Positions 6 to 62,751 of a DNA stretch of 64,000 nucleotides are shown one piece after another; the stretch's first letter is position 1, and every line of letters begins with the position of its first letter. Both the position numbers and the translations under genes were made by a program. Where the stretch lies: the NCBI GenBank assembly GCA_963714095.1, contig OY970230.1:959907-1023906 (forward strand). Direction: 5' to 3'. This DNA is from Candidatus Gottesmanbacteria bacterium. GTDB taxonomy: Bacteria; Patescibacteriota; Microgenomatia; UBA10105; UBA927. The notes beneath the pieces were generated by a model that did not search any database, was not told the origin of the DNA, and saw only the letters and a list, made by a program, of their open reading frames with translations.

Positions 6-548
6 ATGGACCTCACGGGTTGGTCACGGGAAAAAACGGTCGAGGAATTTCATAAACTCCATAAGGTGACGATACAAAGTGCAACGGCGGTTATTGCCAA
101 ACTCTGTCATATATCAATTCCCGAAGCCGCAGTTGCTTCCGAGAAACGGTTTGACCGGCGAGATTATGTCCATCGAGATGAGAAGCTGATTGCCATGTTT
201 CAACATCTTAAGAATTTCCGTCATTTCATACTTGCAAACGGTGTGAAGCAATATCACATAGAAACCCTTAAAGTATTAGGAATTGCGCCCGAGATATTTG
301 AAGAAATAGTCACCAGTGAAACAATTGGGGTTACCAAACCTGATGATAAGGGGTTCCGCTATATTATGAAAAAAACGGGATTACCGCCCGCGGCGCACCT
401 GATGGTCGGCGACAGGGAACTTGTGGATCTGGCGCCGGCAAAAAAGTTGGGTATGCACACATGTCTTGTATGGAACGAGACTAAGAGTGCGTTTGCGGAT
501 GTCACCCTGCCGACTGTCTACGACGTCGCAACATTATTTTCTGCCTAA
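6..548 (+). CDS. HAD-superfamily hydrolase (putative phosphatase/nucleotidase), 5' end probably cut by the window edge
   Basis: C-terminal HAD motifs (K..., GDxxxD in 'GVTKPDDKGF...HLMVGDRELVDL'). The ORF runs to the window edge and is the first gene of the nucleotide-kinase operon. Confidence 0.6.
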   Translation: MDLTGWSREKTVEEFHKLHKVTIQSATAVIAKLCHISIPEAAVASEKRFDRRDYVHRDEKLIAMFQHLKNFRHFILANGVKQYHIETLKVLGIAPEIFEEIVTSETIGVTKPDDKGFRYIMKKTGLPPAAHLMVGDRELVDLAPAKKLGMHTCLVWNETKSAFADVTLPTVYDVATLFSA

Positions 549-559
549 CGATTCATCGT

Positions 560-1036
560 ATGCATATTTCGTATCTAGAACAGGCGATTGCGCGATTGCG
601 CGACGGGGAGTTCGGTCCCGGGGATCCGCGGACAGCGAGTTTGTTTAGTACGTCCGGCGCGGCATTATCATTTGAAAATCGGCGGAAGATTTTAGAGATG
701 GAACTGGGAACGTTGAAGGATATTGAGCGACAAGAAGCGTTGGGTGAAAAACACCGCCGCGAGTTTTGGTCGGATTCGTTGAATCTTGCAGAAAAACTGA
801 ACGGTACGGTTCGTTTTGTTGCCGCATATGCCAATATCCCTCCCGAAAAAATTGCTGATACACTAGCAATTGTACAGGGAGAGGGGGCAACGGTTATTCG
901 GCTCGAAGATTCGTTATACCACTATCTTGAAATAGATATGCCGGGTCAGCCAGTTTATATTGCACCGAAAGCAATATTGCCTGAAACAAAGATACATCTT
1001 CTTAAAACGGTTGCCGGTCTCGGGATCAAGTACTAG
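560..1036 (+). CDS. hypothetical protein
   Basis: 158-aa ORF on the same strand, packed between the HAD gene and the tmk paralog. No family recognised. Confidence 0.45.
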   Translation: MHISYLEQAIARLRDGEFGPGDPRTASLFSTSGAALSFENRRKILEMELGTLKDIERQEALGEKHRREFWSDSLNLAEKLNGTVRFVAAYANIPPEKIADTLAIVQGEGATVIRLEDSLYHYLEIDMPGQPVYIAPKAILPETKIHLLKTVAGLGIKY

Positions 1037-1039
1037 TAT

Positions 1040-1591
1040 GTGCATATGAAACGGGGAAAACTTATCGTTTTTGAAGGCGTGAGCGGGACGGGAAAAGAGA
1101 CGCAGGCAAAAATGCTGCAAGCATTTTTGAAAAAAAAAGGCATAATTTCTCACATCGCATTTCATCCCTCGCCGGAATTGAAAAAAGACTTGAAAATGGC
1201 TACATCTGTGCAGCAGCAGATTGCACTCCTGGCTCGTGACAGACGCAACAGGGTACGGCACCTCATTCTTCCGGCACTGCGCCGCGGGGAATGGGTGATA
1301 AGTCTTCGTAATTATGTGAGCGCGTATGTCTATCAGGGGGACGGGTCGCTATTGCAAGCATTTGATCCGAAACCCGACTGGCTGTTTTATTTTGACATAG
1401 AACCGGAAATTTCAATGAAGAGAATTGTGTCACGGGGCGGTATCCGCGGAACTTATGAGACGATGACATTGTTAGATGAAAAACGAAAAAGATATAAAGA
1501 AGTACTCAAAACCATTCCGCATATTCCGATCGATGCATCGGAGAGCATTCTTTCGCTGCATAACAAAATCGTTTCCTATATACCGTTGTAA
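1040..1591 (+). CDS. dTMP-kinase-family paralog (divergent nucleoside-monophosphate kinase)
   Basis: P-loop 'LIVFEGVSGTGKETQ'. The 'YVYQGDG' and 'PDWLFYFDIEPE' segments align with tmk 'IAYQGYG' and 'PDLVILLDAPP'. It lacks the 'TREPGG' segment of canonical Tmk. Confidence 0.6.
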   Translation: MHMKRGKLIVFEGVSGTGKETQAKMLQAFLKKKGIISHIAFHPSPELKKDLKMATSVQQQIALLARDRRNRVRHLILPALRRGEWVISLRNYVSAYVYQGDGSLLQAFDPKPDWLFYFDIEPEISMKRIVSRGGIRGTYETMTLLDEKRKRYKEVLKTIPHIPIDASESILSLHNKIVSYIPL

Positions 1592-1641
1592 TATTTTTTC
1601 TTCTTGCACTTTATCCGGTTTTTCACTAGGATGATTTTTGT

Positions 1642-2286
1642 ATGAAGCGCGGATATTTTATTGTTTTTGAAGGCGGTGAAGGATCGGGAAAATCCGTTCA
1701 GGTTAAATTGCTTGCGGATTCCCTGCGGGATACGGGGAAGACAGTCGTTGTTACGCGTGAACCGGGCGGGACCCGCATCGGTGAACAAATCCGTGCGATC
1801 ACGCATAACACGGAAAATGTGGATTTGGATCCGGTTGCAGAGGCGTATCTTATGGCAGCATCGCGTGCCCAGCATGTCCGCGAAACGATTGCGCCAGCCC
1901 TTGAGGACGGAAAAATTGTCATTTCCGACCGGTTTGTGGACAGCAGTATTGCCTATCAGGGATACGGCAGAAATTTAGGAGCGAAGGAAATTGTAGCGTT
2001 AAATACATTGGCAGTCGACGGAGTAACACCGGATCTTGTTATTCTTCTGGATGCGCCGCCTACTGTGGGACTCGCGCGGCTGGAAAAAGAAGGCAAACGG
2101 AAAGACCGGATGGATATGCAGCAAAAAGATTTTTATGAACGCGTGCACGCGGGATATTTGGCTCTTGCAAAAAATAATCCGTCGCGGTATCTTGTCGTAG
2201 ATGCGACGAAACCGATTGAAGACGTTGCATTTTCTATTTGGAAAATTGTTACAAACGTTCTGAATAAACGAAATGGCAAAGACTAA
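1642..2286 (+). CDS. tmk: thymidylate kinase
   Basis: 'FIVFEGGEGSGKS', 'VTREPGGT', 'DRFVDSSIAYQG' and 'DLVILLDAPP' are canonical Tmk motifs. Confidence 0.9.
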   Translation: MKRGYFIVFEGGEGSGKSVQVKLLADSLRDTGKTVVVTREPGGTRIGEQIRAITHNTENVDLDPVAEAYLMAASRAQHVRETIAPALEDGKIVISDRFVDSSIAYQGYGRNLGAKEIVALNTLAVDGVTPDLVILLDAPPTVGLARLEKEGKRKDRMDMQQKDFYERVHAGYLALAKNNPSRYLVVDATKPIEDVAFSIWKIVTNVLNKRNGKD

Positions 2287-2860
2287 CCATCCAGGAAAGG
2301 GTAAGCTCACTGTTATTGCCGGCCCGATGTTTGCAGGCAAAACAACAAAACTCCTTACGCTCTTCAGTGTCCTTTCAAATTTGGGGTACAGCGTTCTCTG
2401 TTTTAAAGCGGAGGCAATGAGCAACGGCGGCATGGGACACACGAAATCTCATGACGAACGCCCGCTTCCGGTAATTTATATCGACATGAAAAAACCGGAA
2501 AAAATTTTGGAGTATGTCGGAGGTCAGGGAATTAAAAAGGTGATTATTGATGCCGTTCATTTTTTCCCGAAAATAGAATTCATCGCCGTTGTACAAAAAT
2601 TACTGACGCAGGGGATTGATGTGTATGTGAACGGACTTATTTATGATTACAGAAAAAAAGAATACGGTGCGACGAAGACTCTGATGAAGATGGCGGACGA
2701 ATGTATCGAGCAATTCAGTATCTGCGTTAAATGCGGAGGGAAAGCTGCCCACACTGAACGCATCGCCGGTCCCGCGCAGTTGTCCATCGGCACGACCGGC
2801 CCGGTTGCCGCAAAATATATAGCCGTCTGTGCCGCCTGCCACAAAATATATAAGGGATGA
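2273..2860 (+). CDS. tdk: thymidine kinase
   Basis: 'LTVIAGPMFAGKTT' P-loop, 'VIIDAVHFF' and a C-terminal CxxC...CxxC zinc ribbon are type II TK hallmarks. It overlaps tmk by 14 nt. Confidence 0.85.
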   Translation: MAKTNHPGKGKLTVIAGPMFAGKTTKLLTLFSVLSNLGYSVLCFKAEAMSNGGMGHTKSHDERPLPVIYIDMKKPEKILEYVGGQGIKKVIIDAVHFFPKIEFIAVVQKLLTQGIDVYVNGLIYDYRKKEYGATKTLMKMADECIEQFSICVKCGGKAAHTERIAGPAQLSIGTTGPVAAKYIAVCAACHKIYKG

Positions 2861-3722
2861 TAAATAAAGGACCGGACGGTCAGCAACTTCATTTTGAACA
2901 AAATTTCATTCTTATACCCGGTCCTTTCGGTGCCGGTAAAACACATACAGTTGGTTTGATTAATAATTTCTTTTTCGAGCATAATCTTTGGTACGGTAAA
3001 CCAGTTACGGATGCGGTGTATATAGAAGCTGCGCTTGAAGCAGATCACCGGTTTAACGAAGGCGTCAATCACATGCATGATAATCAGACGCGTCCGGAAA
3101 AACATGAACATTACCCGGGTGAGCCGAATTTACATTTTAGTGTGACAGGTCCGTACATTCCTCATTTTATGCATAAACATTTGTTTGAGGATTTGTCCCG
3201 TGGGTTTTTCGATAATTATTTGTTCCCGGTTGAATGGTCCGGCGGAGGGAATACAAATCCTGAAGGACATCCGGCATCGCACGCGGATTATTCATTTAAG
3301 ACTCAAGTAGAAGGAATGCAAAGCGGTATATATATGAAAGCGATTGGTTATCAAAAGTACTGCTCGTCATTCATCCACTTGTACCTGATGGTGGTGGTAG
3401 AGAGCAATTAAATGGTCGCCGTAAAGGAAGACGCGATCCTACACAAACCGAAATTGAATCAGGTATGGGCAGTTGGTGGATTCCAGATGCTGGCATGAAG
3501 ATAACAGGCCATAATGATTTTCCTGAGGTGATTCCGATTCTAGAAAATATGGGACTGGGAGGAAAAATTCACGTTATTCCTAATGACGGCGGAGAAGGAT
3601 ATGATAGGCAGCTTCGTAGAATTTTAGAAGAGAAAATCGGACCGATGTTGGACAAAGAAGGCCACCCATACTGGCCAGAAGGTAACCCACATACTTCAGC
3701 TCGCGAAAGGGATCGGCGATGA
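2857..3722 (+). pseudogene. novel P-loop NTPase paralog 1, disrupted by a +2 frameshift in a (TA)4 tract; fragments are 2857..3411 and 3465..3722
   Basis: Both fragments align colinearly to the intact paralog at 3719..4507: 'ADHRFNEGVNHMHDNQ' vs 'AHDHKFHEGRNHMHEGQ', and 'NDFPEVIPILENMGL' vs 'DDFPVFQHFLESHGV'. The frame switches at tatatatat (3327..3335). Removing one TA restores 'SGIYESDWVSKVLLVIHPL', which matches 'SGEFATEWVPRVLTVLHPS'. Confidence 0.7.
3327..3335 (+). repeat. (TA)4T dinucleotide tract at the frameshift point
   Basis: Read directly: 'ggtatatatatgaaag'. Dinucleotide repeats are classic slippage sites. Confidence 0.8.
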
Positions 3723-4507
3723 AAAATATCATTTTAGTCACCGGGCCGATTTCGGACGGGAAGTCATTTTTGATAACAGGTCTACGGGAGGAATTTGCGC
3801 GCCGTGGAATTCCGCAGTCGCTTGAGGTGATATCCGACGGTAAATTTTTACTGGATGCAGTCGCACATGACCATAAATTCCATGAAGGGCGCAATCACAT
3901 GCATGAAGGACAACAAATACCCACAGCACATTACCACGGCGACGGGTGGCAGAATAAATATGATTTTGTTGCAACGGGACGGGAAATACAGACATTTATG
4001 TTTGCCAATTTTTTTCGCCAGCTTGAATGGATTCGGGACTCTGGACAGATCGTTTTTGCAGAACTTGCGGGCGGTGATGGAGTGTATAAAAAAGACAATC
4101 CACTCGCGGCAAATGATTACTCATATGCCCGCATTGTCGATGGGTTGAATTCGGGTGAATTCGCTACGGAATGGGTACCCCGTGTTCTTACCGTTCTTCA
4201 TCCGTCGTCTGAATTTTCCGATCGGATTGCATGGAATAGGAATCGCCTCAGCCATCCGCCAACAGAAGATGAAATTATGGGGGGTCGCGCTTCGTGGGGA
4301 GTGCCTGAAATGGTTATGGGGAATACAGCTTACGATGATTTTCCCGTGTTTCAACATTTTTTGGAATCGCACGGCGTGAATCCATTCAATATCGAAACGA
4401 TTCACAATTCCGGCGGACCAGAATTGTACCAAGGTGCAATTGCTTCGTTGGAACGGCAGGGGATCGGGTTGCCCCCCGAACGACAAACAAGAGGAAAGGA
4501 GTTTTGA
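3719..4507 (+). CDS. novel P-loop NTPase/kinase-like protein, paralog 2 (intact) with a His-rich HxHKFHEGRNHMHEG motif
   Basis: Walker A 'LVTGPISDGKS' and Walker B-like 'IVFAELAGGDG'. The ATGA overlaps its neighbours on both sides. No known family recognised. Confidence 0.7.
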   Translation: MKNIILVTGPISDGKSFLITGLREEFARRGIPQSLEVISDGKFLLDAVAHDHKFHEGRNHMHEGQQIPTAHYHGDGWQNKYDFVATGREIQTFMFANFFRQLEWIRDSGQIVFAELAGGDGVYKKDNPLAANDYSYARIVDGLNSGEFATEWVPRVLTVLHPSSEFSDRIAWNRNRLSHPPTEDEIMGGRASWGVPEMVMGNTAYDDFPVFQHFLESHGVNPFNIETIHNSGGPELYQGAIASLERQGIGLPPERQTRGKEF

Positions 4508-5253
4508 TGAATATAAATACTATAGTTATTGCAGGAGCGCCTGCGTCAGGAAAATCAGTCGGAAAAGATATCATTTCAAATCAATTATCGCGTGATGGAT
4601 TTTATGTTATAGGAATGACAGACAGGATGGAATTAGAACGGGTCGTTGCAAACGAAATGCGCGGACGTGCACCTAATCCGAACGGATCAGTTGAAAGTGA
4701 AAATACAATTCTTCTTAACCCTTCGGCCGATCCAAAATTTTGGGGAATGGAATTTAAAACTGCGTGGGCACTCAATAGAGCGCATGAGGAGATGTTTGCG
4801 ACTATACGGGATTTAAGCCGTGAAAATGATCCGGGCAGGATTATTGTCGCAGAGATTGCATACGGCGAAGATGCTCCGTATCCCAGGGGTCCGCTTCGGC
4901 AATCGGCCGGGGAGTTTGTTGCCGCGTTTGTGAAACAGGGAATTTTACATCGTATGTTACTGTTGGATATACAGGCCTCTCATGAAACGCGTCGTGATTG
5001 GAATAAAAAGCGTACAGTTGGCCGTATCCCTTCAGAGGAATTTGATTTGTATTTTAAAGACGGAGGAGGATTCGGGAGTCAGGAAATACGGCTCCTCGGG
5101 GAGAGGTATCATTCTATTAAAAATGAAGGGATTACTCCTCGAGAATTCGCCAGTCTGCTGTATGGTGAGTATGATACATTTATTGTACCGGGAATTCGCG
5201 GGGAGGGGCAACGAACGAGCGAGGAATTTTTGAATCCCCGGACACGACGATGA
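4504..5253 (+). CDS. P-loop NTPase/kinase-like protein, divergent paralog 3
   Basis: Walker A 'IAGAPASGKS'. 'IVAEIAYGEDAPYPRGPL' aligns with 'VFAELAGGDGVYKKDNPL' of paralog 2. It is ATGA-coupled on both sides. Confidence 0.65.
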   Translation: MMNINTIVIAGAPASGKSVGKDIISNQLSRDGFYVIGMTDRMELERVVANEMRGRAPNPNGSVESENTILLNPSADPKFWGMEFKTAWALNRAHEEMFATIRDLSRENDPGRIIVAEIAYGEDAPYPRGPLRQSAGEFVAAFVKQGILHRMLLLDIQASHETRRDWNKKRTVGRIPSEEFDLYFKDGGGFGSQEIRLLGERYHSIKNEGITPREFASLLYGEYDTFIVPGIRGEGQRTSEEFLNPRTRR

Positions 5254-5840
5254 AAACAACAGTTTATCTAATTCGCCACGGGGCGTATGAAAACCCGAAG
5301 AAAATTTTGCACGCAAGGTTGCCGGGGTTTCCGTTATCCGCAGATGGCAAAAAGATGGCTGAGCGTATCGCGTCGTATTTATCACAAAAACCGATTGTTG
5401 CCGTATACAGCAGCCGTCTCTCTCGGGCCTATCAAACCGCGGAAATTATCGCAAAGAAGCATCATCTGCCGATAGTTACCGATCGCCGTCTTCTGGATAT
5501 CCGCACACCGCTGCAGGGGAAACCGAAGGCATATATTGACAGCATCGACTCGGAGTTTTATACAGAAGATCTTATCCGTGCCGGCGGGGAACGGCTGGAA
5601 GATGTATATACACGCATGGACAGGTTTATCCGTTCAAAAGTTCATTCCCATGCAGGACAATCGATCGTTGTCGTCTCCCACGGTGATCCAATTATGAGTA
5701 TTGCGACAAAATATGAAGGCAAACCCTTGCCGCGAAAATATTCGTTCAGGGAGTGGTATGTGCCGCAAGCGTCGGGATTCAAAATAGAGTTTGATGAAGA
5801 AACACGGAAAAAGAAGATTACTAAAATTCCGTTACCATGA
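5250..5840 (+). CDS. histidine phosphatase superfamily (phosphoglycerate-mutase-like) protein 1
   Basis: N-terminal 'LIRHGAYENP' carries the RHG catalytic motif. 'VVVSHGDPIMS' supplies the C-terminal His. Confidence 0.8.
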   Translation: MKTTVYLIRHGAYENPKKILHARLPGFPLSADGKKMAERIASYLSQKPIVAVYSSRLSRAYQTAEIIAKKHHLPIVTDRRLLDIRTPLQGKPKAYIDSIDSEFYTEDLIRAGGERLEDVYTRMDRFIRSKVHSHAGQSIVVVSHGDPIMSIATKYEGKPLPRKYSFREWYVPQASGFKIEFDEETRKKKITKIPLP

Positions 5841-6433
5841 AACAGACGACAGTGTACCTTATCCGCCACGGAGCATACGAAAATCCCAAACACGTAAACC
5901 CCGGCCGACTCCCCGGATTTCCGTTATCCGCTGAGGGGAAAAAACAAGCGTCCGTTTTGGCAGAATTATTTTCAAAAATACCTGTCAGCTCGATCTATGC
6001 AAGCCCGATCACGCGAACACTGGAAACTGCCACGATTATCGCGCAGAAACTTAATCTTTTGGTTGTGAGGGATGACCGTCTTTTGGAAGTACGGTCGCCG
6101 TTTAATGGAGCTCCGGTTGAGGTGGTAGATGCGCTTGCATATGCCGGTGAAATGTATACACCCAAATATTTTAAGCAGGGATTAGAACATATACCTCAAT
6201 TCTTCCGGCGTATGGATGACTGCTTGAAAGATATTGTTCAACGGGAGCAGGGGAAGCAGGTTGTTGTTGTATCCCACGGAGATCCGATGATGTCCGTGTG
6301 GTTCAGATATAACGGCCTTGACTGGTCGAAAGGGTTTGCACTTGGTAATTGGTTTGTCCCGATGGGAACCGGTTTTACAATAGTATTTGATACCAAAGGA
6401 AAGCCTCTACGTTTCACCAAATTTCCCGCTTGA
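5837..6433 (+). CDS. histidine phosphatase superfamily protein 2 (tandem paralog)
   Basis: 'LIRHGAYENPKH...VVVSHGDPMMS' is colinear with the preceding gene. It has an ATGA overlap. Confidence 0.8.
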   Translation: MKQTTVYLIRHGAYENPKHVNPGRLPGFPLSAEGKKQASVLAELFSKIPVSSIYASPITRTLETATIIAQKLNLLVVRDDRLLEVRSPFNGAPVEVVDALAYAGEMYTPKYFKQGLEHIPQFFRRMDDCLKDIVQREQGKQVVVVSHGDPMMSVWFRYNGLDWSKGFALGNWFVPMGTGFTIVFDTKGKPLRFTKFPA

Positions 6434-6594
6434 CACCGGTACTTTGTACCAGTAGACTGAAAAAAAGCGCAGTCAGATATAAATCTCAAGCGCCTTTTTC
6501 TTTTTTTCTCACGTAACGCCATCCGTCAGCTGACGGACGTAGGTCACCAAATGAAAAAACAGAAGCAGAAATATCGTAATAGTTTTATTTTTCC

Positions 6595-6617
6595 AAAGCC
6601 CCCTTGCGGGGTTTTTT
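6595..6617 (+). terminator. rho-independent terminator closing the kinase/phosphatase operon
   Basis: 'aaagcccccttgcggggtttttt' forms a GC stem (cccc/gggg) with a ttgc loop, followed by a T6 run. Confidence 0.6.
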
Positions 6618-6624
6618 GCGTTTT

Positions 6625-7476
6625 ATGGGGTTAGAGTCACAATATTATTTTCAGATCGTCACATCCAATCGTCAGCGTGCACTCGCAATTCAACAGGCGT
6701 TACCCGGCGGGAGGAGCGTTCATTTTTCCTTCAGTCCGGTGAACGAGGATTTGGCAAAGGGGATAGAGAGTGGCGACCATGTTTCTATTCCTGACGCACT
6801 CTCACACGTACAACACGTTGCAGAATATAAAGGTCAAAGGGATTTTGTTACCGTAGGAAACACAGAAGGAGCACTGGATCAACTTCTCTATATCGGAAAA
6901 CCACGGGAAGATGCGCAGGGGTTTCCTTATTTAGCACGCGTGACGATTGATTCCAGTCAATTAGTGTTTGAAGATCCTCATATTGTCCGTTTATTGCAGA
7001 AACCACTTGGGAGCGAATTATTACATCTGCCCGACAAATTGTCCGGCAGACGAACTGCGATTATTACCGCTATCACTCGGATTGTTGCTCCGCTTGAGGA
7101 ATCACTTGCGACTTCTAAACAGGATCTCATAGCTCATATGTCTACTGTGATCGTTATGACGAGTTATACGTTGCAGTCATTTACAAGACAACAATATAAA
7201 GATTTTGTGTTTGAGGTGGGCGGGCCCGAACGTATTCGAAATGTCGCCGGCGGATTGCCGTTTGCTGATAATCCATTTGTAGATACCAGAGAACCCTATG
7301 AGATTCGCATGGTCAATCCTCATAGTTACGGTGAACAGGTACTAGATAGGGGATGGAATTGGGAAGAATTGAATCGGAGTCAATGTGTGCACGGTGCATT
7401 TCCGGATGCATTGCAAAGTCTTTTAGTAGAACCGGGAGTTCCCCTCGCGCGTTCCGGTGATATATTTAAACGATGA
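6625..7476 (+). CDS. hypothetical protein
   Basis: The listed ORF starts at a TTG inside the terminator. The ATG at 6625 ('MGLESQYYF') is the more likely start. No family recognised. Confidence 0.45.
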   Translation: MGLESQYYFQIVTSNRQRALAIQQALPGGRSVHFSFSPVNEDLAKGIESGDHVSIPDALSHVQHVAEYKGQRDFVTVGNTEGALDQLLYIGKPREDAQGFPYLARVTIDSSQLVFEDPHIVRLLQKPLGSELLHLPDKLSGRRTAIITAITRIVAPLEESLATSKQDLIAHMSTVIVMTSYTLQSFTRQQYKDFVFEVGGPERIRNVAGGLPFADNPFVDTREPYEIRMVNPHSYGEQVLDRGWNWEELNRSQCVHGAFPDALQSLLVEPGVPLARSGDIFKR

Positions 7477-7499
7477 TGTTTTAGATCATCCCGACCGTC

Positions 7500-8270
7500 C
7501 TACTTCGTCTCATGTGAATCGGCGAGGTATGTAAAGAGTTTTTTAGTTGCCTCAGTTGCCTCAATTGGTCCGCCTTTTTGAGGAGGATTGAGGATGAGGA
7601 AATCCGCAACACTTCCGGCTTTCTTTATTTCTTTAGCGGCATTATGGATGCGCCATGCTGCTTCGTCTGGATTCCGTTGTTCAATTATTCTTTGAGCTAA
7701 ATCAACGAACGGCATTTGTGGCAAAATAAAAGCGACATGACTTTGAACTTCCGGGTGATTTTTTGCCAGCCATTTTATAATTTTAGGTAGTCCATTTTCT
7801 TCACCGCGCCAGACGACAATTTTGCTTCCACTGCGTAGTGACTTTTCCATTTCTTCTACTGTTGTTCCAAAAAGTCCGGCTTTTTCCGGCTGAAATTCGA
7901 TAAATGCCCCCTGTTGTTTGAGATCGGAAAATTGTTGTCCACTGACAAAACGGTGCTTTTCTCGTACCGCAGTATGTATTCGTTCTTCTCTGGTAGTGTG
8001 CGTAATAATGAGGTTATACATATTAGGAGGAAGACTTTGAAGTACAGTATCTTTTCCTGATGCAGAAGGCCCCATAAATGCGATGAGGTGTTGTTCATTT
8101 AATGGCGCAATATTCTTTATTCCCCAAATAAGTGGATGTATATGTGCGAGTTGGTGAAATTCCATGAAATCAGGATTGACCGTTGATAACATCTCCGGAC
8201 CCATTGGCATTTCAGCCGGGAAAGGAAGCTGTTTTAGTATGTCGCTGGCTAGTTCTGCACGCACGGTCAT
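7500..8270 (-). CDS. gmk: guanylate-kinase-family protein with a ~60-aa N-terminal extension
   Basis: 'IAFMGPSASGKDT' P-loop and 'ITHTTREER' (the HTTR motif). 'FIEFQPEKAGLFGTT' matches the E. coli Gmk 'FLEHAEVFGNYYGTS' segment, with 'AFILPQ' against 'IFILPPS' as a second anchor. Confidence 0.65.
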   Translation of the reverse strand: MTVRAELASDILKQLPFPAEMPMGPEMLSTVNPDFMEFHQLAHIHPLIWGIKNIAPLNEQHLIAFMGPSASGKDTVLQSLPPNMYNLIITHTTREERIHTAVREKHRFVSGQQFSDLKQQGAFIEFQPEKAGLFGTTVEEMEKSLRSGSKIVVWRGEENGLPKIIKWLAKNHPEVQSHVAFILPQMPFVDLAQRIIEQRNPDEAAWRIHNAAKEIKKAGSVADFLILNPPQKGGPIEATEATKKLFTYLADSHETK

Positions 8271-8331
8271 AAGAAGGGAATTATATCATTTTTAGCCTAT
8301 AATATCAATATTTCTTAAAAATAGCATAACT

Positions 8332-8340
8332 TGGTATAAT
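8332..8340 (+). promoter_or_regulatory. extended -10 promoter TGgTATAAT
   Basis: A TGnTATAAT consensus sits 12 nt before the ATG at 8353. Confidence 0.4.
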
Positions 8341-8352
8341 GTGAATCTTCTT

Positions 8353-8712
8353 ATGAAGAATAAAATAGAAGAAAACAGGATTCCGGATTATGAAGGCGGC
8401 CCGATATTACGTAAATATTTTGGGAACGGTGAACTGGGTGAATATTGTTTTCAACTAATTACGATACATCACATTGCATGTGATACCCTTGTGGGTCCCA
8501 ATGGAGAGTCTTGCGGAAAGCCTGCAATAGGCACGACGGAATATGATCTTGCAGGAGAGCTTATGATAAAGGGTCATTGTAGTATGGCACATCACAACGC
8601 AATAAAAACAGCTGTAGAGCAAGAATTGAAGGATCAAGGTGAAGGTCGAATGACTGCTTTTGGTATCAATGGATGGGGTAGAAGTTCTGGGAACTTGTTA
8701 TTCAGAAAATAA
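8353..8712 (+). CDS. hypothetical small Cys/His-rich protein
   Basis: ORF 8341..8712, using the ATG at 8353. It has several Cys and His residues (CDTLVGPNGESCGK...GHCSMAHHN). Confidence 0.4.
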   Translation: MKNKIEENRIPDYEGGPILRKYFGNGELGEYCFQLITIHHIACDTLVGPNGESCGKPAIGTTEYDLAGELMIKGHCSMAHHNAIKTAVEQELKDQGEGRMTAFGINGWGRSSGNLLFRK

Positions 8713-8729
8713 TTCCGTATGATAACCCC

Positions 8730-10049
8730 ATGATCCTTGCTAAAACCGACCCGGAGATTGCCAAACTTATTGCTGCAGAAGAAAAACGCCAGAAAGACGT
8801 GCTGGAGATGATTCCGTCTGAGAATTACGCATCTGCTGCGGTACGGGAGGCAATCGGGTCGGTGTTAACAAACAAATACTCCGAAGGATACGCGTACAGG
8901 CGGTATTACCAGGGAAACCGTTTTATCGATGATATTGAAATTCTTGCGATCGAGCGGGCTAAAAAGCTGTTCGGTGTTCCGCACGTCAATGTCCAGCCGT
9001 ACTCGGGGTCTCCGGCAAATTCCGCAATTTACTTCGCTCTTCTTAACGCAAACGATACCATCATGGGCCTTAAACTTTCAGCCGGCGGGCACCTCACGCA
9101 CGGGCATCCGGGAGTGACATTTTCCGGCAAGTATTTTCAGTCAGCCCAATATGATGTCGAGGCTACTGGCGAGATTGATATGGATAAGGCCGCTGTGTTT
9201 GCAAAAACGGTGAAACCACGGATTATCGTTGTCGGCACGACTGCGTATCCGCGTATTTTCGATTGGAAACGGTGGCGCATGATTGCGGACAGCGTTGGCG
9301 CATATTTTCTTGCGGATATTTCCCACATCGTGGGTCTTGTAGTAGGAGGCGTACATCCGTCTCCGGTGCCGTACGCAGATTTGATTATGACCACCACGCA
9401 TAAAACGCTTCGCGGCCCGCGCGGCGCGATGATTCTGGTAACGAATCAGGGGTTGAAAAAAGATCCCCAGATGGGAGATAAAATTGACAAAGCTGTTTTT
9501 CCGGGGCTCCAGGGCGGGCCGCACGATAATGTTACGGCAGCAATCGCGGTGGCGCTTAAGGAAGCGGGGACACCGACATTTAAGAAATACACCGAGCAAA
9601 TCGTTGTAAATGCAAAAATTCTGAGTGAAACATTACTGAGCGAGGGATTTACGCTTACGACCGGAGGCACGGATAACCATCTTATGGTTGTTGATTTGCG
9701 TCCGCAGGGAGTCGTGGGAAACATTGCAGCTGAGGCGTTAGAGGCAGCAGGAATTGTTGTAAACCGGAATAGCGTACCGCACGATCCAAATCCGCCATTT
9801 TACCCATCAGGGATCCGGCTCGGTACGCCTGCCATTACAACCAGAGGAATGAAGGAAACGGAGATGAAGGTGATTGGGAAGTGGATTGCGGAAGTCATAA
9901 AAGAAGTTTCCGGTAGTCCGTTACCTGGGACAAAGGAAGAACGCATCGCGTATCTTAAAAAATTCCGTTCATCTGTTGCAAAAAATAAGCATCTTGCCAA
10001 AATTTGCGCGGACGTCAAAACCCTCACCACGCGCTTCCCTTTGCCGTAA
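8730..10049 (+). CDS. glyA: serine hydroxymethyltransferase
   Basis: 'TTTHKTLRGPRG' PLP-lysine motif, with full-length SHMT colinearity. Confidence 0.95.
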   Translation: MILAKTDPEIAKLIAAEEKRQKDVLEMIPSENYASAAVREAIGSVLTNKYSEGYAYRRYYQGNRFIDDIEILAIERAKKLFGVPHVNVQPYSGSPANSAIYFALLNANDTIMGLKLSAGGHLTHGHPGVTFSGKYFQSAQYDVEATGEIDMDKAAVFAKTVKPRIIVVGTTAYPRIFDWKRWRMIADSVGAYFLADISHIVGLVVGGVHPSPVPYADLIMTTTHKTLRGPRGAMILVTNQGLKKDPQMGDKIDKAVFPGLQGGPHDNVTAAIAVALKEAGTPTFKKYTEQIVVNAKILSETLLSEGFTLTTGGTDNHLMVVDLRPQGVVGNIAAEALEAAGIVVNRNSVPHDPNPPFYPSGIRLGTPAITTRGMKETEMKVIGKWIAEVIKEVSGSPLPGTKEERIAYLKKFRSSVAKNKHLAKICADVKTLTTRFPLP

Positions 10050-12080: not shown

Positions 12081-13154
12081 ATGTTTATAAGCACAGTTAT
12101 ATATATCTTTAGCATAGTCGTGGAAACGTTACTCATTTTAAGTGCTCTTGTCCTTATCCATGAGTTAGGACATTTTACCGCTGCCAGACTTATCGGAGTT
12201 AAGGTGGAAGAATTCGGTTTTGGTTTGCCGCCGCGCGCTATTGGTAAAAAATTCCACGGTATTCTTTATTCTCTGAATTGGTTGCCGATTGGGGGATTTG
12301 TGCGCCTTGCTGGTGAAGATGAAGAAGATGAAAAAATAAAAGGTATTAAGGCAAAGGAATACTTTTTTGCACGGAGTAAAAAGGAACGGGCGGCAATACT
12401 GTTGGCCGGTGTATTCATGAATTTTCTCCTTGCCGTGGGAATTACGACCTTTTTATTAACCCAAGGTGTTCAGGAGACGAGCGGACGCGTGCATATTGAA
12501 CAGGTACAGGCAAACAGCCCCGCCCAAAAGGCAGGGTTGAAAGCAAACGACATAGTTGAAGGGTTTAAAACGCCGCAGGATCTTATTACATTTGCCAAAA
12601 CTCATGCCGGCAAGCCCGCGACGTTTACGATTCTGCGTGATAACAAAAATATTCAGATAACCTTGACGCCGCGTACGACGTATCCGTCGGGTGACGGTCC
12701 GGTGGGAATTGTGATTTCGGATTTGGAGACACGGGTGTATCCTATTTCGCAGGCGCCGCTGGTTGCAACGAAAATAAATATTGAACGTGCCCGGGATATG
12801 TTTGTTGCAATTTGGGATCTTCTTGTCCGCATGGTTCACCTTAAACCGGTGGGGCAGGATGTTGCCGGTCCCATAGGTATCGCGGTCGTTACCGGGCAGG
12901 TATTTAAGTTCGGATGGAAGGCAGTACTCGAATTGGTAAGCATGATATCCCTTGATCTTGCAGTGCTTAACGTGCTTCCGATACCAGCAATGGACGGAGG
13001 CAGGCTCGCGTTTGTATTTTTGGAAAAAATTATCGGGAAAAGGGTAAAGCCTGCGTTTGAGCAGTCCATACACCAGATCGGTATGATTGTCCTGTTTATT
13101 CTTATTATCCTCATCTCCATCAATGACATCATGCGTCTCTCCCGCGGCGGGTAA
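12081..13154 (+). CDS. rseP: RIP zinc metalloprotease RseP (site-2 protease)
   Basis: Has the 'HELGH' zinc motif in TM1, a PDZ-like middle region, and a C-terminal 'LDGG' motif. Confidence 0.85.
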   Translation: MFISTVIYIFSIVVETLLILSALVLIHELGHFTAARLIGVKVEEFGFGLPPRAIGKKFHGILYSLNWLPIGGFVRLAGEDEEDEKIKGIKAKEYFFARSKKERAAILLAGVFMNFLLAVGITTFLLTQGVQETSGRVHIEQVQANSPAQKAGLKANDIVEGFKTPQDLITFAKTHAGKPATFTILRDNKNIQITLTPRTTYPSGDGPVGIVISDLETRVYPISQAPLVATKINIERARDMFVAIWDLLVRMVHLKPVGQDVAGPIGIAVVTGQVFKFGWKAVLELVSMISLDLAVLNVLPIPAMDGGRLAFVFLEKIIGKRVKPAFEQSIHQIGMIVLFILIILISINDIMRLSRGG

Positions 13155-46248: not shown

Positions 46249-46425
46249 ATTCCTCCTTCTTCGCAGAACAATAAACCTGCGAATGGAGGAGGGGATTATT
46301 GGGAAGATGAATGGATAATTACCTCAACCACGCTCAGGTTTTAGTTGAGGGTATGATGAAGTACACAAGAAGAAACGCTTGCAAAAGCGTTAAAGGAGAA
46401 CGTACTGGTATTGATGTTTATGTTC

Positions 46426-46455
46426 ATATATTAACATGTTAACATGTTAATATAT
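46426..46455. promoter_or_regulatory. perfect 30-bp palindrome atatattaacatgttaacatgttaatatat (candidate operator)
   Basis: Self-complementary over all 30 nt. It lies about 180 nt upstream of the ammonia-lyase start, in a 255-nt intergenic region. Confidence 0.45.
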
Positions 46456-46503
46456 TGCTGTCAAGTGTGAAAAAATAATTGGACGGAATGAAGGAAGTCA
46501 GGT

Positions 46504-46866
46504 TTAAATCCAGGTGCGTTTTCCACGGAGACGGAATGGTCTGTGTGGGAGAGAATCCCTATTTTTTTTCGGAAGCAAACGGCCGGCGATAGTCTGATAG
46601 CCGCCCATGCCGGTATGGAGCCAGTGAGCGACACGGGAAACGGTAGTCGTTGACGTTTTCAGTTCTGAGGCTATTTCAGCATACGGCAGGCCTTTTACGA
46701 GCAGTTTGACCATTTGCCAGCGGTTTGCGAATTCTTTTAATTCCGCCGCGGTTAAAAGATCCCGGAAGAAATTTGCAGCTTCGTCGGTTGTCTTGAGAGC
46801 AAGAATCGCTTTGAACAGCTCCTCCATAGCAGGGGTAGGGTATGAAGACGTAGGAGTTTTACTCAT
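46504..46866 (-). CDS. TrpR/YerC-like small DNA-binding protein
   Basis: 'EEL...LLTAAELKEFANRWQMVKLL..GLPYAEIASELKTSTTTVSRV' helix-turn-helix. The start is taken at the internal 'MSKTP'. Confidence 0.55.
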   Translation of the reverse strand: MSKTPTSSYPTPAMEELFKAILALKTTDEAANFFRDLLTAAELKEFANRWQMVKLLVKGLPYAEIASELKTSTTTVSRVAHWLHTGMGGYQTIAGRLLPKKNRDSLPHRPFRLRGKRTWI

Positions 46867-61633: not shown

Positions 61634-62751
61634 AGGCAGGGGAGGAGGGCATGATATAGTTTGATATATAGGCTTATAGTATCCTATAACAATGTGGATA
61701 ATTCTTTTCACGGAATAAAGTGAGTTTATTTCACGCTCGATACGCGCCCTATGCACACCTGTGCAAGAGCACGGTGTGCTGCGCGAGTGGGCCACTGGCC
61801 CACTCGCTTGAGTACACAATGTGTGCGTATTTTTAGTGGTTTGGATTGTTACTACGCGCTATTCTACTTGAGCGTCCATAAAGATTATTATGCAATATTA
61901 GCTTCGAAAAGATAGGTTTGGAGCATATTGAAGGCCTAAAAAAACCCGAACGTCCTATACCGGCAGGCACACTTCGTGAGTGCTGATAGCCTTAAAATAG
62001 ATAGATTAGCTCGTTATTACGCTCTAAATAGCGACGTATCCATATCTACGTGGGGTATAAACCAGCCTTGAAAATAGCATTATGGAGCATATTAATGAGC
62101 TAAACTGCACTCATGTTCATCCCGAGCCAACGCGAGGGATCTCGTATTTTAGCTTTGAATATTACGTTTTAGAGCATATTAATGGGCTAAATCGTGATGA
62201 CCTCAACACGCGGAGGATAAGAGTTCTTGTTGTATGATATGTGTGCATTTAAGGCTGTAGATTCGTTTAAACACTATCAAGGATAGTTGATCTCTTACCC
62301 GAGGAGAGTGGTTTTCGAGGCTAGGTTGCCCCCTGTTTATAACGCGCTATGGATAATACCTTTTCGGGTGTTTGGAATGCCTATCCTTGCTGCAGGGAAT
62401 CTTTACCTATGTAGTCGCACAATAATACTTTTGCGACGTGTACCAAGGCTTATGCGGGAGAGGCCTTTTCAACGGTATTTTAGATTCCGCGTTGGTTGAA
62501 CAAATATATTGTTGTTTTGTGTTATAGAATTATTCTTTCGATATTCTCTCTTTTATGTTTCTTAATTCTTTTTGTCCATCTTTGGTTTGAGTGGTTTTTC
62601 CGGAATCGCGAAAATGAGAAATTTCGCGTGGTTATAACCCAAACGTTCTTACGGGTGTTGCGTATAGATGAGTAACTGGGCATGCCCATTACCATTAAGC
62701 CGTCCTGGGGCATTACAGAGGCTTCCAGCTGAGGCTAATTTGTGGCTAAGG
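61634..62751. other. 1.1-kb non-coding region with hairpins, direct repeats, a DnaA-box 9-mer and an AT-rich tract
   Basis: No credible ORF. The elements are itemised in the findings. Confidence 0.6.
61915..62191 (+). repeat. three degenerate ~24-nt direct repeats (GGAGCATATTRANGRGCTAAA)
   Basis: Copies at 61915..61940, 62081..62104 and 62167..62191. Confidence 0.6.

Follow-up and report, generated by a model that had tools for sequence, protein, structure and literature searches.

In the window, which means here the whole stretch of 64,000 nucleotides that was analysed, the P-loop gene P1 is read in two different frames, and its tandem paralogs P2 and P3 are intact. The initial annotation had proposed slipped-strand phase variation, a recent pseudogenisation in a duplicated family, or an assembly error. 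The question raised by this locus is whether P1 has been inactivated, is switched or read across the break in some other way, or is in fact intact in the organism. The split is probably due to a genuine and very recent expansion of a short repeat by one TA unit, inactivating one of the three paralogs, and the lesion looks like an ordinary young frameshift pseudogene, not a regulatory switch. DnaB, DnaX, CysRS, HisRS and ribosomal proteins S6 and S18 are encoded in the window, indicating that it belongs to a cellular chromosome; the host may be an uncultivated bacterium with a reduced genome, possibly a member of the Patescibacteria.

Location of the frame break and reconstruction of P1

The features of the locus are shown in Table 1. 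Frame 0 is open from about position 3310 to 3722, and frame 1 is closed by the TAA that ends the 5′ fragment. The frame change sits in TATATATAT, a (TA)4T run of 4.5 units. Homology in frame 1 ends at ...VEGMQSGIY, with the TAT at 3331..3333, and homology in frame 0 begins at the GAA at 3336..3338 (ESDW...), so the switch is confined to the TA run, which is where the initial annotation had placed it.

Table 1. Coordinates and properties of the features at the P1 locus (positions in the window; ORF lengths and frames from the ORF listing)
Feature	Position	Strand	Description
Thymidine kinase	2273..2860	+	Upstream neighbour of P1, conserved in all orthologous loci
P1 5′ fragment	2857..3411	+	ORF of 184 aa, frame 1; 159 native codons (2857..3333), 25 out-of-frame codons (3334..3408), TAA 3409..3411
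TATATATAT, (TA)4T	3327..3335	+	One TA/AT unit above the in-frame state
Displaced P1 3′ part	3336..3722	+	Frame 0, ESDWLSKVLLVIHP ... RDRR, stop TGA 3720..3722, no internal stop
ORF2, mechanical call	3465..3722	+	ORF of 85 aa, frame 0; begins at the ATG of Met203, which is internal and conserved in the intact protein; not a new start
P2, intact paralog	3719..4507	+	262 aa; ATG overlaps the frame-0 stop of P1 (ATGA, 3719..3722)
P3, intact distant paralog	4504..5253	+	248-249 aa; P-loop present, His-rich motif absent

With one TA removed, a single P1 product of 287 aa was obtained. The repaired protein is colinear with the paralog P2 over 251 columns (32% identity, E 3e-32) and the alignment crosses the junction, which bears out the earlier claim that the ORFs at 2857..3411 and 3465..3722 align colinearly with the downstream paralog. 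The -2 repair needs no gap against P2 (SGEFATEW) or against three intact orthologs (SGIYERGW, SGLYDNTW and SGVYDTGW), and a +1 repair leaves one residue too many relative to the homologs. The statement that deletion of one TA unit restores the match to the paralog holds in this gapless form, but one residue of the peptide given for it had been mistyped; the peptide is SGIYESDWLSKVLLVIHPL, with DWLSK and not DWVSK.

In profile searches, the two fragments gave separate matches to complementary parts of the family profile (P0004, positions 1-156, E 6e-70; P0005, positions 197-280, E 7e-27), and their resemblance to one family is not due to chance. The intact homologs can be followed colinearly through both parts, with the frame disrupted between them: the ORF at 2857..3411 and the frame-0 stretch at 3336..3722 are halves of one gene. 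The 5′ fragment carries the Walker A motif GPFGAGKT, the His-rich motif NHMH...HEH and VEWSGG, and its start ATG overlaps the stop codon of the thymidine kinase gene (ATGA). The displaced part retains the family-conserved residues H172, R181, N185, R188, G202, S205, D220, N242 and G244. Between about 3310 and 3465, frame 0 contains no ATG, GTG or TTG. For annotation, this would mean that 2857..3722 is recorded as one pseudogene rather than as two hypothetical proteins.

Orthologs of P1 and gene order

When the repaired P1 was searched against 5.8 billion proteins, the matches were the truncated P1 ORF itself and three intact orthologs, P0001 to P0003, which are 281-286 aa long and align with full coverage at 64-66% identity; among these public proteins there was no near-identical intact P1 allele. 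The initial annotation had called for a comparison of orthologous loci, and all three orthologs are single-frame genes in the same context, with P1 following thymidine kinase (TK). The order is thymidine kinase, P1, P2, P3 and histidine phosphatase, with SHMT downstream, in locus L002; TK, P1 and P2 in locus L004; and TK and P1 with the histidine phosphatase gene directly after in locus L003. The number of family copies varies naturally between lineages, from 1 to 3, which agrees with a partial redundancy of the copies. One ortholog, found in three assemblies, is of groundwater metagenome origin. Profile scans with the P1 and P2 alignments (genome contigs), and those of metagenome contigs, returned no relatives.

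At the break, the closest ortholog reads AGC GGC ATA TAT GAA AGA GGT TGG (S G I Y E R G W), and the codon alignment gives AGC GGT ATA TAT AT GAA AGC GAT TGG for the window. The remaining two orthologs have CTT TAT GAT and GTG TAC GAT at these codons, with no repeat. The run in the window is exactly one unit above the (TA)3 of the closest ortholog, pointing to the gain of one unit by an ancestral (TA)3T run, a change that bears the signature of replication slippage.

Another apparently split gene, the dTMP kinase ortholog of L004 (about 435..444), was discarded as a case of the same kind, the interruption being a run of N, that is, a scaffold gap and not a frameshift. Two further assemblies of the L004 data begin inside this dTMP kinase gene just beyond the gap and then match L004.

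Predicted consequences and age of the lesion

For the recent slippage pseudogene, the predicted course of events starts with replication slippage, which would have lengthened a short (TA)3T run at P1 codons 158-160 by one TA unit. Translation would then depart from the native frame after Tyr159, add 25 unrelated residues and stop at 3411, giving a truncated P1 that would lack two of the five core β-strands, the arginine-rich helix (R181, N185 and R188), the DDF motif and the NDG motif. In the model of an ortholog, the strand 167-174 (KVLMVIHP), the helix 178-189 and the last strand 237-241 with NDG all lie after the break, as do 9 of the 26 residues that at least 90% of the 31 family members compared have in common. 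Together with the irrecoverable residues 160-202, these losses take away residues needed for function, and from the model and the conservation the truncated product is very probably inactive.

Termination of P1 308 nt before the P2 start would also remove the ATGA overlap that normally links the translation of the two genes, and P2 expression may be affected by the lost stop/start coupling. P1 would accordingly stand as a nascent pseudogene or as a loss-of-function allele dominant in the population. Its loss is possibly tolerated since P2 and P3 remain; with both of these intact, and with related lineages carrying one, two or three copies, the loss of one copy is plausible.

Sequence conservation was compared on the two sides of the break. 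Among the columns invariant in the three intact orthologs, P1 keeps 79 of 88 before the shift (89.8%) and 61 of 70 after it (87.1%), and the leave-one-out retention for the intact orthologs themselves is 87-94%. Relaxed constraint or further decay downstream of the shift was therefore not observed, the value after the shift being within the range of the intact orthologs, and the 128 displaced codons contain no stop. The displaced half is conserved as well as the intact half, indicating that the lesion arose very recently compared with the divergence of these lineages. Otherwise either the lesion would not be real or the frame would still be read in some way, and an undecayed displaced half is equally expected from an artefact or from an expressed, recoded gene, which weighs against the slippage pseudogene.

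P1 shares with known slippage frameshift pseudogenes the gain of exactly one unit in a pre-existing short repeat, the presence of intact orthologs and the redundancy of paralogs in the family; it differs from them in showing no secondary decay yet and in that its lesion is known here from assembled sequence. With intact syntenic orthologs, exactly one extra unit and an undecayed displaced half, the earlier suggestion of a recent pseudogenisation in a duplicated family is the best supported of the three, and P1 would represent a textbook one-unit slippage frameshift caught ahead of further decay in a redundant gene family.

Occurrence of the (TA)4 run and of other TA runs

NCBI, ENA and Logan all contain truncated P1, on contigs that fall into four size classes and reach 1,088,247 bp. 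In Logan, a 39,975-bp contig of run ERR11571142 and a 12,950-bp contig of run ERR11594402 match the window with 0 mismatches over 7281 and 5558 bases, respectively, including (TA)4 in both. The two runs show zero SNPs between them, indicating the same clone, and they may share a sample or platform. The flanking TK and P2 were found on exactly the same four contig classes as truncated P1, so no contig pairs these neighbours with an intact P1. A literature search under the run accession found no paper.

The window contains about 85 tidy ORFs, and the small ORFs with a Pfam match (HIT, FeS_assembly_P, S6, S18 and DUF2007) span the entire profile. The initial annotation had also asked whether other (TA)n tracts occur in coding regions, and three more runs of 8-9 nt were found in the window, at 12098, 14799 and 42194, all in ORFs with no frame break; two of these three ORFs have a Pfam match with full coverage (M50 peptidase and EamA transporter). 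A second TATATATAT is located at 12098..12106, 17 nt past the predicted start of the M50 (RseP-like) peptidase gene, in frame and undisrupted.

Alternative explanations

If the extra TA had been added by the sequencing platform, in polishing or during assembly, the organism would have (TA)3 and an intact 287-aa P1. The complete lack of decay in the displaced half agrees with such an artefact, as does the 100% identity of all contigs, which may stem from one sample or technology. Against it, both Logan runs, separate from each other and put together by a k-mer assembly independent of the deposited one, have (TA)4, the frames at the three other TA runs are unbroken, small ORFs cover their Pfam profiles completely, and no further split gene was seen among the about 85 ORFs. 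Dinucleotide-unit insertions are, to our knowledge, not a typical consensus error of any current platform. The identical (TA)4 in two runs and the clean window make an assembler-specific error unlikely, and with it the assembly error considered earlier; an artefact of any of these kinds, including a systematic sequencing error common to both runs, is judged unlikely. Reversible slipped-strand phase variation, with the TA run as a contingency repeat that is ON at (TA)3 and OFF at (TA)4 and varies the kinase repertoire, agrees with a lesion of exactly one repeat unit, whose contraction could restore the frame, and with an undecayed OFF allele. TA 8-mers are also mildly over-represented in the window (3 against 0.64 expected), but 3 is reached in 4 of 100 shuffles and the enrichment is not informative. 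As in the SSR contingency loci of Neisseria, Haemophilus and Campylobacter, the repeat is intragenic and the unit number sets the frame, but tracts with useful switching rates are far longer than this one. Contingency loci are usually surface or restriction-modification genes, and P1 is of an atypical class, a cytoplasmic enzyme of metabolic type. Its 4 units (4.5 with the last T) fall short of the cut-offs of 6-8 units applied to dinucleotide repeats in phasome analyses (PMC5953494), and dinucleotide tracts identified at such cut-offs in Neisseria showed no length changes (PMC5953494). The repeat is moreover not conserved at the site, where the orthologs have ATATAT (3 units, in the closest ortholog), CTTTAT and GTGTAC. 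No length polymorphism was observed between contigs, all of those with the flanking genes in the four size classes being OFF with (TA)4, and there is no ON allele in the 5.8 billion proteins. Slippage as the mutational mechanism stands, but the switch that had been proposed with it does not fit a short tract that is shorter or absent in orthologs and OFF everywhere, and phase variation is considered quite improbable.

The same repeat could be imagined as a site of programmed recoding, in which a +2/-1 ribosomal frameshift or transcriptional slippage on the TA run would give full-length P1 from (TA)4. The downstream frame of P1 is perfectly conserved, as this would require, and a TAT- or ATA-decoding tRNA could in principle re-pair 2 nt downstream in the TA repeat. 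The orthologs are all single-frame genes with no conserved slippery site, however, no X XXY YYZ heptamer is present, and the 100 nt downstream have a predicted MFE of -21 kcal/mol against a shuffle mean of -21.7 (z = 0.21), with no sign of a stimulatory structure. We know of no bacterial precedent for an efficient +2 shift at (UA)n. Programmed frameshifting was rejected on the lack of site conservation and of downstream structure, and is regarded as extremely improbable. A functional split gene, in which a 184-aa N-fragment and an 85-aa C-fragment are both made and reassemble, would agree with the fact that both ORFs are called by gene callers and that ORF2 starts with ATG. The first start in frame 0 is Met203, however, so the two pieces cannot restore residues 160-202, which are in neither of them and which include the core strand KVLLVIHP and the invariant R181, N185 and R188. 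A functional protein in two pieces was rejected because frame 0 has no start codon before Met203, and it is highly improbable. That the TA run is functional at all, be it as a low-frequency reversible switch or as a +2/-1 recoding site, has little chance of being right; if it were, the run would tune full-length P1 relative to P2 and P3, in the setting of a three-paralog, possibly hetero-oligomeric nucleotide-kinase-like system in a reduced-genome bacterium.

The P-loop kinase-like family

Searches of Pfam, NCBIfam and PDB sequences with the family gave no match, and no named kinase family (Thymidylate_kin, ADK, dNK, SKI, AAA_33 etc.) matched above threshold. All of 1.84 billion representative proteins were scanned with HMMER, and only 90 family members came out at E <= 1e-3. 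Their lengths are mostly 255-290 aa, with a few fused doubles of about 500 aa, and the genes occur as 1-3 tandem copies or as fused doubles (window 2857..5253; L002 4239..6612; L010 5426..6220; L009 688..2208). The existence of fused doubles suggests that P1 and P2 may interact. The conserved features are Walker A, D[DH]..GG.NHxH...HxH, AEWxGG, DxS, VIHP, R..LN..R, G.SW, DDF and NDG. The GK of Walker A is invariant in the family alignment, and the conserved NHxH...HxH suggests metal binding. P3 is a distant member that lacks the His motif (hhalign 93.5%, E 2e-7).

An AF2 model of an ortholog was built from a 47-sequence alignment (pLDDT 92.2, pTM 0.90) and superseded an earlier, poor model from a 4-sequence alignment (pLDDT 68). 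The nearest structures in Foldseek were adenylate, shikimate, deoxyadenosine and thymidylate kinases (probability 1.0, TM-score 0.43 by query and 0.57 by target, best E 3e-5); over the range of top matches there were E values of 3e-5 to 1e-3, TM-scores of 0.36-0.44 by query and 0.5-0.59 by target, and 8-15% identity. At the level of the fold, Walker A and the core fold place the family in the superfamily of P-loop NMP/nucleoside kinases, and the label "P-loop paralog" in the initial annotation is correct, with Walker A present and a kinase-like fold in the model. In common with these kinases, the family has Walker A of the form GxxxxGK[TS] and a five-stranded core fold with the best Foldseek match, and its genes adjoin TK, TMK, dNK and a GMK-like gene. 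It differs in having no match at the sequence level, low query TM-scores and about 80 extra residues, including the conserved His-rich hairpin (NHxH...HxH). The best guess is that the family is a nucleoside- or nucleotide-directed kinase in a salvage pathway.

Gene cluster around P1

A conserved cluster was found at 6..10049 of the window, 1728..9930 of L002 and 1118..10273 of L010. It encodes a HAD hydrolase, dNK in some cases, two dTMP-kinase paralogs, thymidine kinase, the P-loop family, histidine phosphatases (one or two) and SHMT. A protein of about 285 aa that has no annotation (6604..7476) also belongs to it, as does a guanylate-kinase-like protein encoded on the opposite strand, and many of its genes are linked by ATGA overlaps. 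The distant family member P0018 is in the same cluster, with dNK, HAD, TMK, TMK, TK, the family gene, HisPhos, PNP, GMK-like and SHMT. The cluster looks like one that serves nucleotide salvage; a literature search on nucleotide salvage in CPR bacteria found nothing.

Several other features of the window were recorded. Tandem His_Phos_1 paralogs are located at 5250..5840 and 5837..6433 with an ATGA overlap, and only one is present in L002, L003 and L010. The guanylate-kinase-like protein (7500..8270, minus strand, 256 aa) has an N-terminal extension of about 60 residues, and only its residues 62-218 match Pfam Guanylate_kin, weakly (E 1e-10). The stretches 46249..46705 (457 bases) and 61634..62286 (653 bases) contain no ORF of at least 60 aa, and an Rfam search of both gave nothing credible, the single match being to sR14 at chance level (E 0.04).

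Implications

The peptide SGIYMKAIGYQK would mark the truncated P1 product, and SGIYESDWLSK would point to recoding or to an intact allele. If the lesion is real, it shows that gene loss is still under way among these tandem paralogs, of which related lineages already carry anything from 1 to 3 copies. The unannotated family is a more interesting lead than the frameshift itself: compact, His-rich and fixed in a nucleotide-salvage cluster, it is a reasonable target for biochemical characterisation.
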